The translations under genes were made by a program, and so were the position numbers. The notes under the pieces are model-generated. The model worked only from the letters and a program-made list of their open reading frames with translations, was not told where the DNA came from and searched no databases. DNA of 64,000 bases from Octopus vulgaris (taxonomy: Eukaryota): the NCBI GenBank assembly GCA_951406725.2, contig OX597833.1, positions 4,712,001 through 4,776,000 on the forward strand, written 5' to 3'. Of the stretch, positions 10,561 through 54,930 are shown in pieces (within the stretch, counting starts at the first letter, position 1; every line of letters begins with the position of its first letter).

Positions 10561-10625
10561 TTAGTCGTCCCAATCATCGTCCAAATTTTCATCATCATCG
10601 CTGTCTTCCTCATCACTTTCACCAT
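10561..10625 (-). CDS. WASL: N-WASP last coding exon, acidic domain (DGESDEEDSDDDENLDDDWDD*)
   Basis: ttttgcag acceptor, phase 1, TAA at 10563-10561; acidic tail with the Arp2/3-binding Trp. Confidence 0.96.
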
Positions 10626-12797: not shown

Positions 12798-12900
12798 CAG
12801 ATCCTTGCAAGGTTTTCTTTCTGTTGGCCAGTGCTCGGGACAATGCTCCGACAATTCCAGTGTCCTCAATGCCGGGGGACTGCGGGGTGCCGGCTTCCAC
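12798..12900 (-). CDS. WASL: N-WASP exon, central (C) domain (VEAGTPQSPGIEDTGIVGALSRALANRKKTLQGS)
   Basis: cttgcag acceptor, CTG|gtaaat donor, 103 nt, phase 0/1; GIVGAL..AL..R motif. Confidence 0.95.
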
Positions 12901-14153: not shown

Positions 14154-14665
14154 CGGTTTCAAGTTCTTCATGCCAATATTGCGGATCTCACACATGAGGT
14201 TGCCTCTCTTGTCCTCAGACGCCGGCTGCGATGAGCTGTTGGGGGTGACCTTCTTCAGCTGTGCTCCACGATGGATCTCGTCCAGCAGGGCCGATCGATT
14301 TGAACCGCCCGAACTCGGCCTGCCACCGTCCGGCTCGGACCTTCCGGGTTGGGGTAACGGGGGTAAGCCATGGGACGGCGAGCCGCCGGCATCGCTGCCT
14401 TCCACAGACTGCTGCCGCTGCATGGGGGGTGGCGGGGGAGGGGGCGGCGGTGGAGGGGGAGGAGGGGGAGGCGGCGGAGCGCCAGGAGCCTTTGGGGGAG
14501 GCGGGAGGTTGGAGCGTGCTGGCGGCGGCGGCGGGGGAGCAGTGGTGTTTCGTGTAGGCACTGAACGAGACGGGGGCACGGGGGCTGTGGATCGACTGGG
14601 AGGCACGGGTGGTGGCGCAGCTGACCTTGCTGGGGTCGGTGGCCCAATATGACGAGGTGGTAGGG
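14154..14665 (-). CDS. WASL: N-WASP exon, proline-rich region plus two WH2 domains (RSALLDEIHRGAQLKKV; RGNLMCEIRNIGMKNLKP)
   Basis: cctttcag acceptor, CCG|gtaacc donor, 512 nt, phase 1/0; poly-Pro and tandem WH2 as in N-WASP. Confidence 0.96.
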
Positions 14666-16245: not shown

Positions 16246-16423
16246 TGTGTGGTGGTGGCGGCGGATGCTGTTTCTGGTCCATCTCCTTCTTCACGGCATC
16301 GATTCCTCCGTTCTTTTCGACAAAGTCGTAGATGAACGTGAGGGTCTCCTTGTCCACCTCCTGGCTCGACGCCAGACCAATCGATTCCAGAAGCTGCTTC
16401 ATGTGTTCTTCCATCTGATTTAT
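16246..16423 (-). CDS. WASL: N-WASP exon, GBD autoinhibitory helices (INQMEEHMKQLL...ETLTFIYDFVEKNGGIDAVKKEM...PPPPPH)
   Basis: gttttag acceptor, ACA|gtaagt donor, 178 nt, phase 0/1; FIYDFVE contains the conserved regulatory Tyr. Confidence 0.95.
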
Positions 16424-29298: not shown

Positions 29299-29344
29299 AT
29301 CTACTTTTTTACAGTCAGGGTCCCAGCCTAAGTGTTTAATATGT
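29299..29344 (-). CDS. WASL: N-WASP exon, second half of CRIB (HIKHLGWDPDCKKVD)
   Basis: Polypyrimidine tract plus catcag acceptor, GAT|gtaagt donor, 46 nt, phase 2/0; HxxHxGWDP motif. Confidence 0.95.
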
Positions 29345-30281: not shown

Positions 30282-30381
30282 CGGAAGTTGGTAGGTTGTC
30301 CAATGTCTTGTTTTGTTAGGCGGGACTTTTTCTTCTCTTTCTTTATTGTTGATTTCTTCAGCGTACCATGTTGCGTAGAGC
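30282..30381 (-). CDS. WASL: N-WASP exon, basic region and first half of CRIB (GSTQHGTLKKSTIKKEKKKSRLTKQDIGQPTNFR)
   Basis: cttccag acceptor, CCG|gtaaga donor, 100 nt, phase 1/2; Lys-rich basic region followed by LTKxDIGxPxNF. Confidence 0.95.
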
Positions 30382-31341: not shown

Positions 31342-31446
31342 CTCCAGTATCCGGGGTTTTCTGTAAAGGTGCCTTATTCAAAGTGACGTTATTCTGGGTC
31401 ATGTTGCCTTGCTGGTTCCGTTGAGCATTCTGCTGGTTCCTCCGTT
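31342..31446 (-). CDS. WASL: N-WASP exon, Q/N-rich linker (ERRNQQNAQRNQQGNMTQNNVTLNKAPLQKTPDTG)
   Basis: ctcgcag acceptor, GAG|gtaaga donor, 105 nt, phase 1/1; joins the flanking exons in frame. Confidence 0.85.
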
Positions 31447-33416: not shown

Positions 33417-33516
33417 CTTCCTTCTTCTTCTGCCTCTCCAGGATTTTACTACGGACGACCTGTACAAACTTGGCTGCTTCATCTTCATTGGCAAAGTTTA
33501 TACCAGCCTGACAACA
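33417..33516 (-). CDS. WASL: N-WASP exon, end of WH1 (CCQAGINFANEDEAAKFVQVVRSKILERQKKKE)
   Basis: ttttccag acceptor, AAG|gtaagt donor, 100 nt, phase 0/1; GINFANEDEA motif. Confidence 0.95.
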
Positions 33517-34904: not shown

Positions 34905-35315
34905 GTTTACCAACCCAAAGGCTGAAGACGCTCGACCTTTATTCTCTAGAAAAATGACGATGCCATGGTGATCTCATTCTTGCTCACAACATCATAAGCA
35001 GAAAGTGTAACCTCTCAAAAGAGCTGTTCTTCACTCCTGCTCCAGAGCGTCGGCTGCGGGGTCACTCCAAAAAGCTCTATCTGCAACGATTTCATCTCAA
35101 TCGAAGGAGAGGGGCTTTCTCCGTCCGGGTTGCGGATCCGTGGAATAAGCTGCCGGACGAGATGGTGAAGCTGCCGACGACCGCTCGGTTCAAAGTCTCC
35201 CTTGACCACAGGTGGCCTGAACTCTTTACATGAACACCACCTTGTACATAACTCCATGTCCCCCTACATGGCCTTGCTTTTTGCTTTTTGAGCCAAAAAA
35301 TTAACTTAACTTAAC
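34905..35315 (+). mobile_element. CR1-clade LINE 3' fragment
   Basis: Translates RLKTLDLYSLEK*R..GDLI...LRGHSKKL...FSVRVADPWNKLPDEMV...FKVSLD; short (aactt)n tail. Confidence 0.85.
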
Positions 35316-36002: not shown

Positions 36003-36089
36003 CTCAGCTTCAAATGTGTGGAAGAATGAACGAGGGCTCTTGTATTTCAGTTGATTGTACATCTCTTGTTCCCATAGCAACTGCTGCCG
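36003..36089 (-). CDS. WASL: N-WASP exon, WH1 domain (RQQLLWEQEMYNQLKYKSPRSFFHTFEAE)
   Basis: ctttag acceptor, GAG|gtaagt donor, 87 nt, phase 0/0; WEQE.Y and FFHTF motifs. Confidence 0.95.
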
Positions 36090-38938: not shown

Positions 38939-39289
38939 TATTGTTTTGAGCTGAGTGGGGGTGCTAGATTCCCTTGTTCGAAAATATAAGGACATAGATC
39001 GTGTCGTATAGCTATCGGGAGATGATGTCTCCTGGGGCTAAATTACAGTAATATTCGTATTAAACCAGGACTGCCATGTTATGTTGGCAAATAATCTTTA
39101 CTACGAAAGCAGTGCATTTCAACAGAAATATAGTAACAAAAGGATTAATTTCATTTAATATGTGTGCGTGTGTGTAATTAAAAAGTATTCGTTAACTATA
39201 AATTTGATAATAGAGGAAGAGCAGAGCTTATGAACCCTTCACCCCTACCTGTAAAATTGAAGAGGGTCAAGTTCAGTTTGAATGTCAGC

Positions 39290-39690
39290 TGGTCAACGTT
39301 TGGTAGACAACATGAGCAAGTGAGATTCCAGAGGGTTGCAGTAGTTCTGGGGAGAAAGGACTGGGTAATGTTATTTTGGTGTGGGATGCAGGAGGTGAGG
39401 CCCAGTGACATTGATGAGAGATGCTGTGTGTATGTAGGGGCCACATGTCCAAGTAATTCTGGGAAGCAAAGCACATTGTAGTGATAGACAAATGCAGAGA
39501 GAGAGGAGAAATAGCATGGCTGTGAAGCTGAGAATGTAGAAATTAGACCCTTGCCAACCAGTTGAAGATGCCTTCTTTTAGATGTAGTTTCAGATGTGTA
39601 AGGCGATATAGATTGATGGAGTGGATAAATGAGCCTCTTAACTCTGGTCTGAGACCAGACACAGCTGAAGGCCATTCAACCGTTTACCAA
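39290..39690 (-). mobile_element. Degenerate CR1/L2-group LINE 3' fragment
   Basis: QSFLPRTTATLWN motif in the ORF track, frameshifted. Confidence 0.5.
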
Positions 39691-41333: not shown

Positions 41334-42198
41334 CCATATGTACACATATACATACACATATGTACACATATATGCATTTATATATATGTGTGTGTGTGTG
41401 TGTATACATATACACACATTTGAAAGAATATCAGTAATAACAATATGAGCAATATTTCAAAACCTTCGTTCCTACAGCTGTTTCAATAACTCATTACATA
41501 ATATTAAAGATGGTCCTACTAATCCTACTTATAGCACACAAGATCACATTTTCTTGTGGGGGGGGGGCTTTTTCAATGATGAATTACCGATTTCAAATCA
41601 GCTATTATGTAGGTTGAAGATTCAAGGAGAAAATAAAATGAAAAAAAAAAAGAGAAAATAAAATAAAGGAATATTGAGATGAAAAATAGGAAGAAAGCCT
41701 GAAGGTGGAAGAAGATGGCAGAAGACACTCTTTTACTCAATTCAGTCATTTGACTGCAGCCATGCTGGAGCACCGCCTTTAGTCGAGCAAATCGACTCCA
41801 GGACTTATTCTTTGTAAGCCTAGTTCTTATTCTATCAGTCTCTTTTGCCGAACCGCTAAGTTATGGGGACGTAATCACACCAGCATCGGTTGTCAAGAGA
41901 TGTTGGGAGGACAAACACACATATATATTCATATATACGACAGGCTTCTTTCAGTTTCCGTCTACCAAATCTACTCACAAGGCTTTGGTCGGCCCGAGGC
42001 TATAGTAGAAGACACTTGCCCCTGGAAAATGGCTCAACATGGAAGAAGATATTACAAGAAAACATGAAGAAAGAGGAAGATGATGAAGATGAGGTATAAA
42101 GGACTTTGTGAACATATTTAAAAAAAACAAAAAAACAGACAACAAAGTATGATGCTGGTGAGTGTAATTAATAGAAGCATTCCTGGTTCCGCTCTTAC

Positions 42199-43503
42199 CT
42201 CATCCATGGCATACACTTGTGCAAGGGACTTTAAATAATCAATCAGAATGGGATCAACCTCGTAATATGATTGATGGTCTTCATTCTCCATATTGGAATC
42301 CTCGGTTCCATAATAATTACCATTGTCCAAAGAGCTGTTGTAATTATGGTAATTATTATTCTCCTCAAAAGCTCCCATAGAGTCTGGGTTTGTTTGGTAA
42401 GATTCGTAGCCGAGGGCCGAGCTGTGGTGGTGGCCACCAGTGGTGTTAGGACCGAACCCTTCATACTGACCATACCCTTGAGATTTCCCATTGTATGCAT
42501 CTGTTTTGCTGGATTCCTGATAAGCACCGGTCATTTTATAGGGGTCGTATTTGTTATGGGAAGGGCTCGCTAGGTAGATAGCCTTGCTCCACATTTCACG
42601 AGGATTAAAATTCCTATCGGATATTTTTGTGGTTGAAGCCGTTTGGTGGTGATGGTCATGGTGATCAGAATGTTGGGGGTCCTGATGGTGATGGTCGTGG
42701 TGGCTTGGCTGATAAACAGAATTGGTTGAGTCATAAGAATTATGTCCATTGTACAATGCAATATTTCTATAGTAACTCCGAGCATGCTCAAGAGCCTTTG
42801 ACCATCGGTCTTGAGGTTTCGCCGTGTCATATTGGACCGACTGATTGTATTCGTTATTATTATGATACACCGTACCATTGTGGTAAGAATGGTTAGATTC
42901 CAAATGGTACTGAGAATTTTCATATTCAGAAGAAATATGGTTAGAATGGTTAGTCATATTACTGGAATTCTCTTTCTGGTAACCATTAGACATTTTGTCT
43001 TGATAAAACCGGTCATTCTGTGAATGTTTGGCTCCGTATGTCTGGGAGTGAGAGTCATATGGTACTTGGACGTCTCTAGATGTTTGTCTGTAAACAGTCT
43101 GGTCAAAAGATTGCTGGGTATTAAACTTCTTTGAACTGGACAACTGACTGTGTGTGTAGTGAGTGGAGGTGTGATAGGGCTGTTGGTCAGAAGTCTGTTG
43201 GAAGTTAACTTGGTCAATGGAATTATTCTGACCGTAAGAATACACAGGTTCAGCATGTTTGTAAGTGTGATGTTGTGTGCTATAGTCGGACTGAGAACTG
43301 GAATGGTGTCCATTGTATTGATATTCTTGGATAGGAGACAAAGTCTGGTTTTCGTGTGCCTGTTGTTGTGGTTGGGACGTCCAATGGGTACCATAATCTA
43401 AGTATTCTTCCGATGGATCTTTCTCGCACAAACCGTACGGATCATACTTCCTGTTTCCATTGAACGGTCTGTATGAGTAACGGTACGGTTTGGTCGCCGC
43501 CAT
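42199..43503 (-). CDS. Putative alternative first coding exon of N-WASP (or nested gene): 435-aa Y/H/Q/N/S/D-rich low-complexity domain
   Basis: Longest ORF in the window and not microsatellite-derived. In-frame TAA lies directly before the ATG. Composition changes abruptly at GAG|gtaaga (42199), a phase-0 donor compatible with the exon starting at 36089. Confidence 0.75.
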
Positions 43504-44389
43504 TTAGCCGAAGAAATCGGTGCAAAAGGAAGAGTTATTGGGAAATATTAGAATGCAGCAGTTTCTTTTTGTTTTTGATTTTTACTAATAGACAATCCAT
43601 CTATTGTAACTATAAACTTGATATTGAGACAGCTACAGTAATTTCTGTGGATTAACAGCATGTAATTGGGGGGGGGGGGGGTGATGTGGTTCACAGGATG
43701 ATAGTGGTGGCGGTGGGAGAATAGAATGCTGTTGCAATACAGATTAGGATTACCAATAGATAATCATTAAAAAGGATTATTGCATCAAAGTATGTTCTCA
43801 TTCTTCACCGAGTGGAACCCCTCCCCTACCTATGGTGGATTAATGGAATCTAGAGAGACTGCTGTCTAGTGGTGGCTCTGCGCTTTATTACTGAGGACAT
43901 GAAGTCACGTGTTGGTCATATCTTTGGCTGGCAATAAACGCTGAATCACACTGCGTAAGGTTAATTATGCAGCCATGCAAGGGATTCTGGGAAATAAGTA
44001 TGACGACAACAGGATGACCAAAGAGAGACAGAAACGAATATATATATATATATATATATAGTCACCATACACATACACAGAATCTTGTATATAGTCTCAC
44101 ACACACACAGAACCAGTTACTTGAATAAGATCTTTGTCCCATTTGCTTTCAGTCATTAGACTCTGGCCCTGCTGGAGCACCACCTTGAAGAACCTTTCAG
44201 TTGAATGAATCAACCCCAGAATTTATATTCTTTAAGCATAGCATGTATTACATCAGTCTCATTTGCTGAGCTGCTCAGTTACATGGACACAAACACACCA
44301 ACACCAATTGTCAGATGCTGGTGGGGGAGACAAACACACACACATATACACACACACACATATACACATACACACATATACACATACAC

Positions 44390-44620: not shown

Positions 44621-47600
44621 GATGGGCTTCTTTCAGTTTCCGTCTACCAAATCCACTCACAAGGCTTTAGTCGGCCCGAGGCTATAATAGAAGACACTTG
44701 CCCAAGGTGCCATGCAGTGGGACTGAACCCAGAACCATGTGGCTGGGAAGCAAGTTTCTTATCACACAGCCATGCTTTTGCCTGTCATCACCGTCATCAC
44801 ATGCAGACATTTACACCAATATATAATGAAGCCAGAGTCAATTTTACTGAATTTCTCAAAAAAACTTGGTTGCATAAAAAAATTTATTGAAGAACAGAGG
44901 CAGCCTAATTGCAAGAAATATATAATTATGAAAGTTCATTAACAAAGGTGGAGTGTGTCGTTTAATTAATCAAACACGCAGTAACATTACATACTACTAT
45001 ATTCGAAGGTGGGTGGGAAAGAGAAGGTGAAATCAGTTCGTTATCTCTCAGAATGAGTAGCTAATTAATATTTCCAGTAAGTAGTAGTAGTACACAAATG
45101 CAACTGGGGGAATTAGCAATGAAAAATAGCTTGGTGATGGAGGTGGTAATGGTGGCAACAGTAGAGATGGAGGTTGCAGTGGTGGTGGTGGTGATTGTAG
45201 ACAATGATATTAAATGAAAATAATAAATAAATAAATAAACGACTGCTTGAAAAACAGAACCAAAATTAATGAAACAAATAAAAACACAAAAGAAGGAAAA
45301 AAAAACTATGTAAGTTACAAAAAATTTTTTGAAAAAATATCTTGAATTTTTTCCGTAATTTAGTCTGAAGTGGGTGGGAAGAATTTGGTTTAGAGATAAA
45401 GACAGATTTTCCCAAACTTAGAGCCTTAATATTTCAGGTTCAAATCCTTCTTTGGCCATATTTCTTAGCAAAATGCAGGGCCTGTGTATTTTAATTAATT
45501 TTGTATACAATCAAGAACAACGGTCTGGTAGAATCGGTTGAGCATCAAAACAAAATGCCGGCATATATTTAGTCAGAATGTAACTACGCCTAACATTATG
45601 TTGTGTGTTGGAAATCAGCCAAGGTCAACCTTGTTGTTTATCCTCTTGAGGTCGATAAACAAAAAGAGAGAGAGAGAGAGAGAGAGAAAGAAAGAAAAGA
45701 GTAGCAGAGAAGTATTGCAGATGATGAAATATTCCCATGATGCATCACCTGAGACATGAATGGGGAAAATCAAATGATTAAGACCAAGGCTTAAAGGATG
45801 GGTTAACGGCTTACTGAAAGAACTTTGACATTATCAATCTGGTGCTTGGAACAGGAGTAGAATATGAAGTACAAAGTTTATCATGATGATATGCGTAGCT
45901 GTTATTCTAGTCATCATTTAACACTCATCTTCCCTGCTGTCTTTATATGGACAGTTTAAGAGGATCTGACGAAACAGAGGGCAATGTTGAGGTCTAGTGT
46001 CTGCTTTGGTACGGTTTCTACTGCTGGATGCCCATCCAAATGCCAGCCATTCTATACAGTATACTAGGTGGGTTTTTTTTTTGTGACACCAACACAAATG
46101 ATGTCACCAAATAGCTTACAAGACCCCTTGACTTGAGTGTGGGCATGGCACTGAGGGAGGTGGTTTCTGTAACAGGTATTGAGAGGCGAAAGTATGAGAG
46201 AGAGAGAGACAAGAACAGGTGTTTTGCTGTAAAGGAGACACATGGCTACCTTAGCTGGAAAAAGGGAAATGGTGGAGACAAGGTGTTAGGGCAAAACCTG
46301 CAAGGTACGAGAAAGTATATAAAGACAGAAAAGGGACAGAGAATCAAGGATGTCTGGACATTCAGGTAGTTTAGTTGATTGCAAATTGGAAAATTATGGC
46401 CAGAAATTCTAACCAAAATCCACTGAGTGTGTGTTTTTGTTTTTGTTGTCCTTGCAGGACAAAAAAATAAAAAGAACCTGTGAAAAGATGAATGAACTCA
46501 GAAGAGTTAATGGCCATTCAACAGCTGAGAATAAGGGACACCCTAGTCTTTATTCAAACATTTCTCGAAGAGAAGGAATTTCCAAAATAACACCTTTACA
46601 TATTGCAAAGCTGGACATGTTACTCTTACCCGTTTCTTAATTTTAAATGTCAACACTGGAATTGCTGACAATATATAGTGTATCCATCATTGGTAGGGTC
46701 AACAAAAAACTTTGAGTGAGAAATATCATTCAATAAGCATAGAATTTCTATACGAGTTACTTTAAGTTTTATACTCAGATGGTACAACAAGCAGATGTGC
46801 TTGTAGAGCATGCTGTGTACTATCCTACACAGGCTCAAGACACACAGATACACAACCATTTTAATGTACACTTTTCCATGCCTGCATGAGTCAGATGATA
46901 ACCCTATTGAATCAGATTTTTGTACAACCAGATGCTTCTCCTGTCGGCAACTCTCACCCGTTTTCAAACAATATATTTTCCCTGGTCTATCAAGCAACAA
47001 ATGGCCCCGATGGGCTTTCACAGAGGCTTGAAAACAAACAATATTATCCGTATGAACAGTGACTATCTGAGCAGATATACAACCAAGGGGAAGTACAGGA
47101 CTGGCACGAACCTGGATAGCATCCCCAAAGTCCATCCCCTCCTCACCGTGGTGGGGACGCTGTCAACGGAACTTCGGTTCCTGGTAGGGCCACCCAAGGT
47201 GGATTGGTCTGACACCGAGTGGTATTAGGGCAACAACCCAGCAGACGGGGCTCTGGTGAAAATCCTCGGAGTATCTGCTTCGGCAACCGGTGGCTCCTCG
47301 ATTGTTCTGTCCCTGTGGACAATCTGTGGCAAACAGGATGTCTCCACATGCGGGATTGTTGGAGACCGCTTGTGAAATCCACATATTTCCATGAAACTTC
47401 TTCCATGAGTAGAAGAAGCCGACTCAACCCACCCAGGATGAATGCCGCCACAAGTACAAGTAAGAACCTGGATAGTTATATGACTAACTGGAGTTGAAGC
47501 TAGTAGGAATCTGGGTAGATGTAAAACAAACTGGGGTACAGGTAGGAATGAGCCAGCTTGGGTGGATATACAAGTAGCTGGATTAGAGATTGGGGTGAGA

Positions 47601-52218: not shown

Positions 52219-52359
52219 CTGCACATCGTATATCCGAAAGTAGTAAGAACGTCTGCTGTTGTCTTTGACAAAGCAGACGGCTCCAGAATGTCTCTTGTTC
52301 CATTGCTGTAAGTTGGGTCGTTCTGCAAGAAACAGCTGGCAAAGGGCTGATGCTAAAGT
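52219..52359 (-). CDS. WASL: N-WASP/WASP exon, N-terminal half of WH1/EVH1 domain (TLASALCQLFLAE...WNKRHSGAVCFVKDNSRRSYYFRIYDVQ)
   Basis: ttttgcag acceptor, CAG|gttggt donor, 141 nt, phase 0/0. GAVCFVKDN..RSYYFRIYD is the WASP WH1 signature. The upstream first exon was not found in the window. Confidence 0.93.
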
Positions 52360-52739: not shown

Positions 52740-54930
52740 GTGTGGGGGTTTTACAGGTAGTGAAAAAGAAAAAAGATAAAAGTATACATGGCATACATTA
52801 AAAGAAGGGAATTATAGAATGTGGCACTAGAAGAAAAAAAAAGAAGAAAAAAGTGATAGTGATGGGGTCCTCCTGATATAGGCGGACCTCTAGGGAGGGT
52901 TGAGGAACCCCACCATCCAAGATCACCTTGGATACCAAGGATGAGTGCCCTCTCCAAATCTCTTTCTTCCGACTCACAGGTCTACTCTGAGAGTGGTACC
53001 ATTCACTCTTGCCATTTTCACAACCTTCACTCAAGGACAGCACCTCCCTCTCCACCTTCACTTTATTATCCGAGTGAAACTTGAAAAAGTCAATGAGGAA
53101 TGTTTCTGTCCTCATTCCTTCTAACCTCATCCACCAGAGACACCCTGTTTTGCCAGAGCCACCCTGTTCATCACCTCTTCCCAATTCTTGTCCACCTGAA
53201 GGTCGGGACTGAACCAGACCCCGATCAGTTTAACAGGTCCATCAGCCCAACGTCCGCTGCTGCTGTCCAACAGCATTGATCTGCCTCTCCAGGTACCCAG
53301 TTGCAATTCCACCAACTTGTCAGCGTTGATTTTGGCTTCTGCAATCGACTCATACTCCCTTACAATGGAGTTGACCATCTCCACATCAGAGGCATCCCAA
53401 TACCATGATGGTGACATCATCTGTGTATGCCGACACTGCTCTCCTGAGTCCAATTTTGAAAGTGAGACCTTTTAACTGTTCCAAGTTCTGCAGCAGTAAC
53501 TTGAGAGCCAACGCATACAGAAGAGGTGACAGCAGGCAGCTTTGACGTACTTAACATGCAATACTAAACGGTTCTGATAGGTGGCCATTTACTTTGACCA
53601 CCGAACAGGTGCCACTGTCCATTGCAGCAATCCAGCCTCTGAAAATGGGTCGGAAATCGGCCGCTTTTAAGACAGTTTCCAAGTAGCAATGGTTGACTAT
53701 CAAAAGCTTTCAACTATCTAAATTGATGAGGGCCCCATCAAAGCTAGCTTTAGTTATTGCCCTCTCTACAATTTATTGCATTAAGGTGGAGGCTGTCATG
53801 GATGGACCTGCTTGGGATAGCAGCACATTTGTGCCTCCCTGGCCAGCGACAAGTGCAAACTTTTGTGCTAACACCTTGACCAGAATCGTAAACTGTGTTT
53901 AGCAGAGTTATGGCCTGAAAATTCCCTAGCATGTCCCCATTGCTGGCATCCTTTCTCAGCAGCGTTAAACACCTTGGCTAACAGCACTAGGAATTCTCCC
54001 ATTCTGCTGCCAGTTATTGCAGACATCTGCCAAGAAGCTACCAAACAAATCTGACACAAATAAACCGGGCAGTTTGCAACTTGTGCAATTGCTCATCGCC
54101 CCCCGTATTTTAGTGGCTGTAATCAGCTTTATGCAGAACCTCATATCCATTACCAAGAGCCGTGGTAGGTTGTCCAGGTACGAAGTAAACTCTGCTACTG
54201 TTGCCAATTCATCACCCTCTCTAAAAATCCATGCAAAGTGCTGCTGAAAAGCCACACATATCTGCTCCAAACCAAGTAGCACATACCTGTCCTGATCCAT
54301 CAAAGACTTTGTGCTTTTGTTTTCAGGTTGCATCACTACCATTCAGGCCCATTGGATGGCTTCAGATCCTTCGAGTTTTAGTGCACAGGCCTTAGCTCTG
54401 ACAATGCACCCTTCATGTTTCACCTCAAAGAAATGGTCAAGGGCTATTCTCACTGCTAACACATCAATTGCGATGCCTTTACTAATAATCTCTTCCAGTT
54501 TGCTAACAAGTTCTCCCTCTAATCTATTTCTCTCTGTTGCTAATTCTTTGCTAAACGCTATCAATTCTACTCAAATTGCTCTCTTCAGAGCAATCTACCA
54601 CCAGTTGTTGATGATTGCCCGTCAACCACCACTTAACTATTTCACTAATCCAGTCTCTGTAGTCTTTGTAAGCCGGTAAGGACGCATTCAACTTCCAGTA
54701 ACTGGGTCTCTGTCTATGGGTCCTATCTAAACCAACTGTGCGTATCACAAATTTGTGATCTGAGTAGCTGACCAATTTAAATTGTGAAGAACCAATGCTA
54801 TTCCTATCCTCTGACCGTACAAATATTTTATCTTAATATGATCTGGATGACCCATTGTGGTTGCTCCTTGTCCACATTGGCGCATCTGGGAAATCCAGTC
54901 AGTACCTGTCAGAAAGCTGGAAAGTCCAAA
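52740..54930 (-). pseudogene. Degenerate L1/Tx1-like LINE ORF2 (end of endonuclease plus reverse transcriptase)
   Basis: Fragmented frames give SDHK, SYWKLNASL, ITLLNTVY, LINLD..KAFD, LSPLLYALAL, SAYTDDVT and EAKIN, with many stops and frameshifts. Confidence 0.85.

Follow-up and report, generated by a model that had tools for sequence, protein, structure and literature searches.

Does a long reading frame inside an intron of the octopus WASP gene belong to that gene, and what kind of N-WASP would it then produce? The question arises from a stretch of 64,000 nucleotides of the Octopus vulgaris genome (G000:C20:4712001-4776000, hereafter the window), for which a preliminary description had proposed that a giant exon, lying in the intron that splits the WH1 domain, could give N-WASP a prion-like N-terminus of 435 amino acids (hereafter the arm) in place of half of this domain.

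The reading frame and the WASP gene

The minus strand of the window holds an open reading frame of 461 codons (43503-42118) with a TAA directly before its ATG. After codon 435 the frame reaches a donor in phase 0 (GAT GAG|gtaaga, the gtaaga occupying 42193..42198), and the acceptor of WASP exon 3 at 36089 (tttag|CGG) has the same phase, exactly as had been described for the intronic frame. The chance of a frame of such length staying open at the composition of the intron is about 2e-12. The coding part of the new exon (42199..43503, minus strand) is situated in intron 2 of the WASP gene, which is also encoded on the minus strand.

The canonical exon 1 (G000:C20:4782233-4782349) is found about 6 kb beyond the window, and exon 2 (52219..52359), absent from the new isoform, codes for WH1 strands 1-3 and the conserved Trp. 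Exon 3 (36003..36089, 87 nt) provides the shared acceptor and begins the second half of WH1, exon 4 (33417..33516, 100 nt) contains the last WH1 strand and the C-terminal helix, and exon 5 (31342..31446, 105 nt) a linker. The basic region and the first half of CRIB are located in exon 6 (30282..30381), the second half of CRIB in exon 7 (29299..29344), and the autoinhibitory helices of the GBD, including the conserved FIYDF tyrosine, in exon 8 (16246..16423). Exon 9 (14154..14665) codes for the proline-rich region and two WH2-type repeats, as in N-WASP (one of them was scored by Pfam), exon 10 (12798..12900) for the central (C) region, and exon 11 (10561..10625) for the acidic region with its Trp, followed by the stop. 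Every joint between exons 3 and 11 is AG/GT and in frame. The summed exon lengths give 866 amino acids for the new exon plus exons 3-11 versus 514 for the canonical form, in agreement with the product that had been predicted, i.e. one lacking the Trp-bearing WH1 half of exon 2 and keeping the basic, CRIB, proline-rich and VCA regions.

In the searched genome (2.8 Gb, 227 contigs) the arm-coding frame was a single copy at both the DNA and the protein level. With the full cuttlefish-type WASP as query one WASP locus was found, the remaining 7 of 13 matches being weak and confined to the proline-rich or C-terminal half. The proteins of the WASP gene were 88-100% identical to those of Octopus bimaculoides over most matched exons. 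Two further loci with WH1 domains (G000:C11:45535593-45561028 and C15:39224258-39239270) are probably of Ena/VASP or Homer type, although this assignment is a guess. The intron that holds the new exon contains many repeats. Four broken frames of the window (53127-54832, 46650-47162, 39196-39675 and 34958-35233), which we take to resemble remnants of non-LTR retrotransposons, had no Pfam match when scanned.

Splicing of the new exon

Part of the reading frame was present in 20 of 24 listed sequencing runs; none of these is recorded as RNA, and 16 of the 20 (studies P1-P5) were guessed to be RNA. Four of the 24 (X1, X4, X6 and X12, from four studies and two organisms) were aligned on 41950-44030. 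In each of the four, one contig matched the exon, and the match ended exactly at 42199 with unmatched letters beyond it, 28 in X1, X6 and X12 and 215 in X4 (these are lengths, the letters themselves not being displayed). The value of 215 is the sum of exon 3 (87), exon 4 (100) and 28. We infer that the 28 letters are what remains of a 31-mer graph when two paths share AG alone at the acceptor, the word size of 31 being taken from the 31-letter index of the contig search.

The same junction appears in a RefSeq protein of O. bimaculoides, XP_014771603.1 (P0001 in our comparisons; 679 amino acids), in which ...AMDE passes directly into RQQLLWEQE and onward through CRIB and GBD. The model was made automatically and bears the name 'putative uncharacterized protein DDB_G0282499, partial'. 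The length arithmetic of the loose ends, together with this model, gives good support to exon 3 as the partner exon in O. vulgaris. As an alternative exon, the 435-codon unit uses its own donor and is joined in frame to a shared internal exon, as seen from the contig breakpoints, the arithmetic of 215 and XP_014771603.1. The splice from 42199 to exon 3 had been predicted from the letters of the window; the contigs leave at the predicted donor in all four aligned runs, and the RefSeq model carries the exact junction. On these grounds we regard the existence of the isoform, and its being coding, as very probable.

Cover was absent at 42160-42198 and at 43700-44030 in the four aligned runs, which is compatible with splicing and a nearby start and was not counted as evidence. 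The contig depth over the exon was 6-11, a poor measure of expression level. The same-species runs X21-X24 had a share of 0.00 and are uninformative on tissue specificity. If the 215 letters are indeed exon 3, exon 4 and 28 more, the X4 contig passes the exon-3 acceptor unbroken and stops 28 letters into exon 5; such an end near 31446 is a hint that exon 5 can be entered by another route and that exons 2 and 3 are seldom joined canonically in X4.

The 5' end of the transcript

The aligned contigs extend to 43575, 43620, 43625 and 43637 without unmatched letters at that end, so that 43504..43637 (minus strand) is the likely 5' UTR. These ends fit a transcription start near 43640, with the reservation that contigs cannot show a start. 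A candidate 3' splice site on the minus strand (43680-43645, 13 C in a row and then ttaatccacag) is located at about 43645, 141 nt before the ATG and in frame with it, with an in-frame stop between; the contigs end 7-69 nt short of this site. The joining of an upstream non-coding exon there is possible. Because of this possible acceptor and the nature of contig ends, the 435-codon exon is called a likely, and not a certain, alternative first exon. The likely 5' UTR also contains a 21-codon upstream frame (minus strand, 43600-43535), out of frame with the arm, which could damp translation of the isoform.

What the isoform loses and what it keeps

The canonical ortholog P0003 (cuttlefish-type WASP) was modelled from 24 sequences, with a pLDDT of about 95 in WH1. 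In this model a helix (29-39), three strands (43-57, 65-77 and 82-89) and W64 precede the exon 2/3 boundary (K91/R92), and the strands 94-101, 114-118 and 122-128 follow it together with a long helix. Of the 111 positions of Pfam WH1 the isoform matches 54-110, while exon 2 holds 10-57; a complete N-terminal WH1 is therefore missing in the isoform, and the canonical product of this gene has one. Since all that precedes the exon 2/3 boundary is lost, the isoform is likely unable to bind WIP: to judge from the model, the remaining half of the WH1 sandwich should neither fold nor bind it. Kollmar et al. hold the same opinion on the half WH1 of an exon-2-less WASP (PMC3298513). WIP binds WH1 and stabilises WASP (PMC3298513), and a WASP without WH1 may simply be unstable without WIP.

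The regulatory and catalytic parts are retained. The basic region and CRIB/GBD are present (PBD E 1e-8 in P0001; exons 6-8 intact), and the proline-rich region and VCA with the acidic Trp are encoded by the in-frame exons 9-11. P0001, a partial sequence, breaks off within the proline-rich region, and we infer that exons 9-11 belong to one molecule with the new exon. Because the stretch from the basic region through CRIB and GBD (tyrosine included) to the proline-rich region and VCA is undamaged, autoinhibition and control by Cdc42 should, as in the established mechanism of N-WASP (PMC3298513), be kept.

Sequence properties of the arm

Among its 435 residues the arm contains 56 Ser, 48 Tyr, 40 Asn, 39 Gln, 37 His, 28 Asp, 27 Thr, 23 Glu and 21 Gly. 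Ser, Tyr, Asn, Gln and Gly together make up 47%, aromatics 13.6%, aliphatics 9% and His 8.5%; charged residues account for 18%, with a net charge of -22. FoldIndex was negative in every window of the arm, which is thus predicted to be disordered throughout. The best 60-residue prion-like log-odds was 11 and the mean per residue negative, as calculated with approximate PLAAC-style parameters. The earlier term 'prion-like N-terminus' goes too far: an acidic sequence with 18% charged residues and such log-odds is weakly prion-like at most.

The comparison of the arm among three close species revealed a block-like conservation. The conserved blocks are found near residues 1-36, 121-140, 226-251, 297-324 and 414-435; 19 of 20 positions are invariant in each of 1-20, 121-140 and 301-320 and all of the last 15, versus 10-12 of 20 in several linkers. 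The motifs WSKA and KYDPY occur twice each, all four copies being invariant. The YDxV/P phosphotyrosine motif, which is of the Nck type, was absent from the arm. Aromatic residues are conserved more often (54/59) than the other residues (267/376; P~3e-4); 43 of 48 Tyr, all 8 Phe and all 3 Trp are invariant, while His is poorly conserved (20/37). It should be emphasized that aromatics are conserved in most proteins, so that their retention in the arm does not point to clustering in particular. A single-sequence AlphaFold model of P0001 (mean pLDDT 40, low confidence) placed helices in the arm at 229-251, 299-310 and 417-429 alone, on three of the conserved blocks; a model of this pLDDT can show neither disorder nor the fate of the half WH1. 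Taken together, these predicted features resemble a classic prion-like domain less than they do a disordered tether that carries aromatic stickers and short binding motifs in repeated copies.

In a comparison for internal duplication the two halves of the arm align with a score of 104, compared to 68+-10 in 300 shuffles of the whole sequence, which ignore local composition; the WSKA pair alone scores 40, which is not significant. A derivation of the arm from exon 2 was considered and rejected, the arm scoring -1.1 bits against the profile of the N-terminal half of WH1, where exon 2 itself scores 78.

Conservation, selection and distribution

The arm of O. vulgaris is 91% identical to P0001 and 80% to P0002, a protein derived from an assembly of a third relative, and 321 of the 435 positions are invariant. 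The anticipated conservation of both frame and donor was observed in O. bimaculoides and in the third relative. P0002 originates from an unspliced contig that reads through the donor: all 19 residues before the donor are identical and 12 of 26 after it, and the stop at 42118 is not kept, the frame running on for 122 codons. On account of this difference and of the lost stop the donor appears to be the edge of selection, which argues against a nested gene.

In a sister organism (organism B) two contigs differed from the exon by 15 mismatches, 13 of them listed, of which 10 were silent and 3 replacements. The expected number of silent changes was 4.1 (P~9e-4), corresponding to an omega of about 0.09-0.12 in this small sample, and one in-frame insertion of 3 nt was also detected in the exon. 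Judged by this pattern of substitutions, the arm is under purifying selection. One of the replacements, N100D, corresponds to an A-to-G change in the sense of the transcript and might result from editing, but P0001 also has D at this position.

The search of 1.84 billion representative proteins by phmmer matched the arm to P0001 and P0002 alone, and the searches of Pfam and Atlas with the arm gave no match; with the junction region, Atlas yielded leads to WH1 alone, under 0.9. Among 50 WASP relatives a foreign N-terminus at this junction was seen in P0001 alone, 46 others being alignable by motif and either canonical or N-terminally partial, and 3 unreadable by motif. No full-length long isoform (763-2175 amino acids) was detected among 1264 candidates, a weak negative, nor by length in six clusters, of whose 77 members 61 were read and 38 listed; in the cuttlefish-type cluster all six proteins have 503-526 residues. 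Thus the arm, as had been supposed, is so far restricted to octopus-like relatives in the sequences compared. The term octopus-specific is provisional, because exons that lack annotation in the genomes of squid or cuttlefish would escape such searches.

Proposed function and alternative explanations

The explanation that we consider best is that a conserved exon in intron 2 of WASP yields a WIP-free N-WASP of 866 residues, still regulated by Cdc42, in which the arm replaces targeting by WH1 and WIP and adds weak clustering. It is held with fair confidence, which is lower than that in the existence of the isoform, because the function is a predicted one. In such a mechanism an internal promoter near 43640 would produce a second transcript from the WASP gene, and the protein, with the basic-GBD-VCA autoinhibition retained, would respond to Cdc42, PIP2 and SH3 adaptors. 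It would be freed from WIP-dependent placement, stabilisation and damping, and the arm of 435 residues would serve as the new targeting module: the two WSKA and two KYDPY copies, the N-terminal 35 residues and the last helix might dock on an octopus-specific partner or structure, while the many conserved aromatics might support weak multivalent clustering and thereby raise the local density of VCA and the output of Arp2/3. A single WASP gene could in this manner supply both a WIP-bound and a WIP-free activator. A more far-reaching version, that the aromatic-rich arm arose de novo from non-coding intron sequence, docks on an octopus-specific structure and also condenses, so that actin is branched without a WIP/Nck scaffold, perhaps in a cell type that only octopods possess, is offered as a tentative proposal, more doubtful than probable.

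The arm might instead be mainly a self-associating domain that separates into phases and builds N-WASP condensates of its own. The high share of Ser, Tyr, Asn, Gln and Gly, the numerous aromatics and few aliphatics, the predicted disorder in all windows and the nearly complete invariance of Tyr, Phe and Trp all speak for this, and the activity of N-WASP increases with clustering. The low approximate log-odds with a negative mean, the charge and acidity of the arm, the poor conservation of His, and a position-by-position conservation with repeated motifs that exceeds selection on composition only, speak against it, and we regard such a role as rather unlikely. A somewhat smaller probability is assigned to the view that the promoter and the loss of WH1 are the point, the arm being a tolerated spacer or stability tag on a WIP-free N-WASP that is short-lived or more easily activated. 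The neural WASP without exon 2 was reported as an active form and WIP stabilises WASP (both PMC3298513), and indels are tolerated over much of the arm. However, omega is near 0.1 across the arm, nearly invariant blocks are found far from the junction, and for the removal of WH1 a much shorter exon would have been just as effective.

Two other readings are far less probable than these. An independent nested gene would run unspliced to the stop at 42118 and code for a protein of 461 residues, unrelated to WASP, with a hydrophobic C-terminal tail; the frame is indeed open for 26 codons past the donor (42198-42118), and P0002 was called from a contig reading through it. Nevertheless, the contig leaves at the donor in all four aligned runs, the tail and its stop are poorly conserved in P0002 compared to the residues before the donor, and the RefSeq model joins the exon to WASP exon 3. 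The tail of 26 residues is probably just T-rich intron, and the unspliced run to 42118, named beforehand as an outcome that would make the frame a separate gene, is largely ruled out; we give the nested gene very little credence. Least probable of all is that the frame arose by chance or remains from a transposon or from a decayed duplication of WH1 exon 2, its splicing being leaky and without function. The repeat-rich intron and the contig depth of 6-11 (a value that measures level poorly) would suit it, but the frame is a single copy in DNA and protein searches, has no Pfam family and bears no likeness to the N-terminal half of WH1 in the profile comparison, and its opening by chance is highly improbable; by the conservation of the arm and the purifying selection on it this reading is refuted.

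Relation to known WASP forms

The isoform shares its gene and all regions from the middle of WH1 to the acidic tail with N-WASP/WASL, and the cuttlefish-type ortholog aligns with N-WASP end to end (6uhc, E 3e-112). It differs in the exchange of the first half of WH1 for the 435-residue arm, relatives of which are limited to three octopus-like sequences. XP_014771603.1 is the orthologous isoform with an identical junction, but automatic, partial and misnamed; no description of it under its accession or name, or of an octopus WASP isoform, was found in a literature search that misses most subscription papers.

The neural exon-2-skipped form of WASP/N-WASP, whose exon boundaries are presumably the same as those of the octopus gene, likewise lacks the exon coding for the N-terminal strands of WH1 but retains the second half of the domain. 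It arises by exon skipping and gains no new domain, whereas the octopus form has a selected arm of 435 residues and is seen in four studies. According to Kollmar et al. (PMC3298513), the neural form was reported as active by Le Page et al. 2004, and they themselves were unable to recover it from cDNA data and suspected that it was an artefact. In their 2012 survey of 400 sequences Kollmar et al. recorded almost no alternative WASP forms, and described WAWH genes without WH1 (PMC3298513). Like the octopus isoform, these code for basic-GBD-proline-VCA activators lacking a working WH1, and WAWH type II has an N-terminal region of its own; however, they are separate genes of amoebae, Apusozoa and a lizard (PMC3298513), while the octopus form is an isoform of a true WASP gene that shares the canonical locus and retains half of WH1, and hence is not a WAWH.

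The wsp-1 gene of C. elegans is likewise a single invertebrate WASP locus with two predicted isoforms. WSP-1B combines a shortened WH1 with a long N-terminus of its own, and the octopus isoform may by analogy have a close precedent in this architecture, the difference being that phmmer found no sequence likeness of the octopus arm there. WSP-1A and WSP-1B were predicted from two start sites, WSP-1B being below detection at gastrulation (PMC11463545), and gm324 affects wsp-1a only (PMC12636343); PMC3285579 and 10.1101/504787 yielded no description of the domain layout of WSP-1B. The view that no such WASP isoform is known was therefore too strong: the junction already exists in an automatic RefSeq model, and WAWH, the neural exon-2-skipped form and wsp-1 are precedents. 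The isoform is present in RefSeq but unrecognised; WASPs without WH1 are known, and it is the large lineage-restricted arm that is unusual.

An isoform that breaks WH1, found in four studies, retained by three species and subject to purifying selection, stands against a survey of 400 sequences that doubted the sole WH1-truncated isoform (PMC3298513). It offers a natural test of how N-WASP behaves when freed from WIP and of whether a fused low-complexity arm can replace the adaptor scaffolds that cluster N-WASP, and the new exon is a good candidate for a large coding exon that is specific to a lineage and has no detectable source. Under its RefSeq name the protein is not recognisable as a WASP isoform, and octopus expression data at the level of the gene pool two differently regulated proteins.

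The arm also resembles the prion-like domains of FUS/TAF15 type in its richness in Tyr, Ser, Gln, Asn and Gly, predicted disorder and dispersed aromatics. It is distinguished from them by being far more charged and acidic, by its many His residues and weak prion-like score, and by its conserved repeated motifs.
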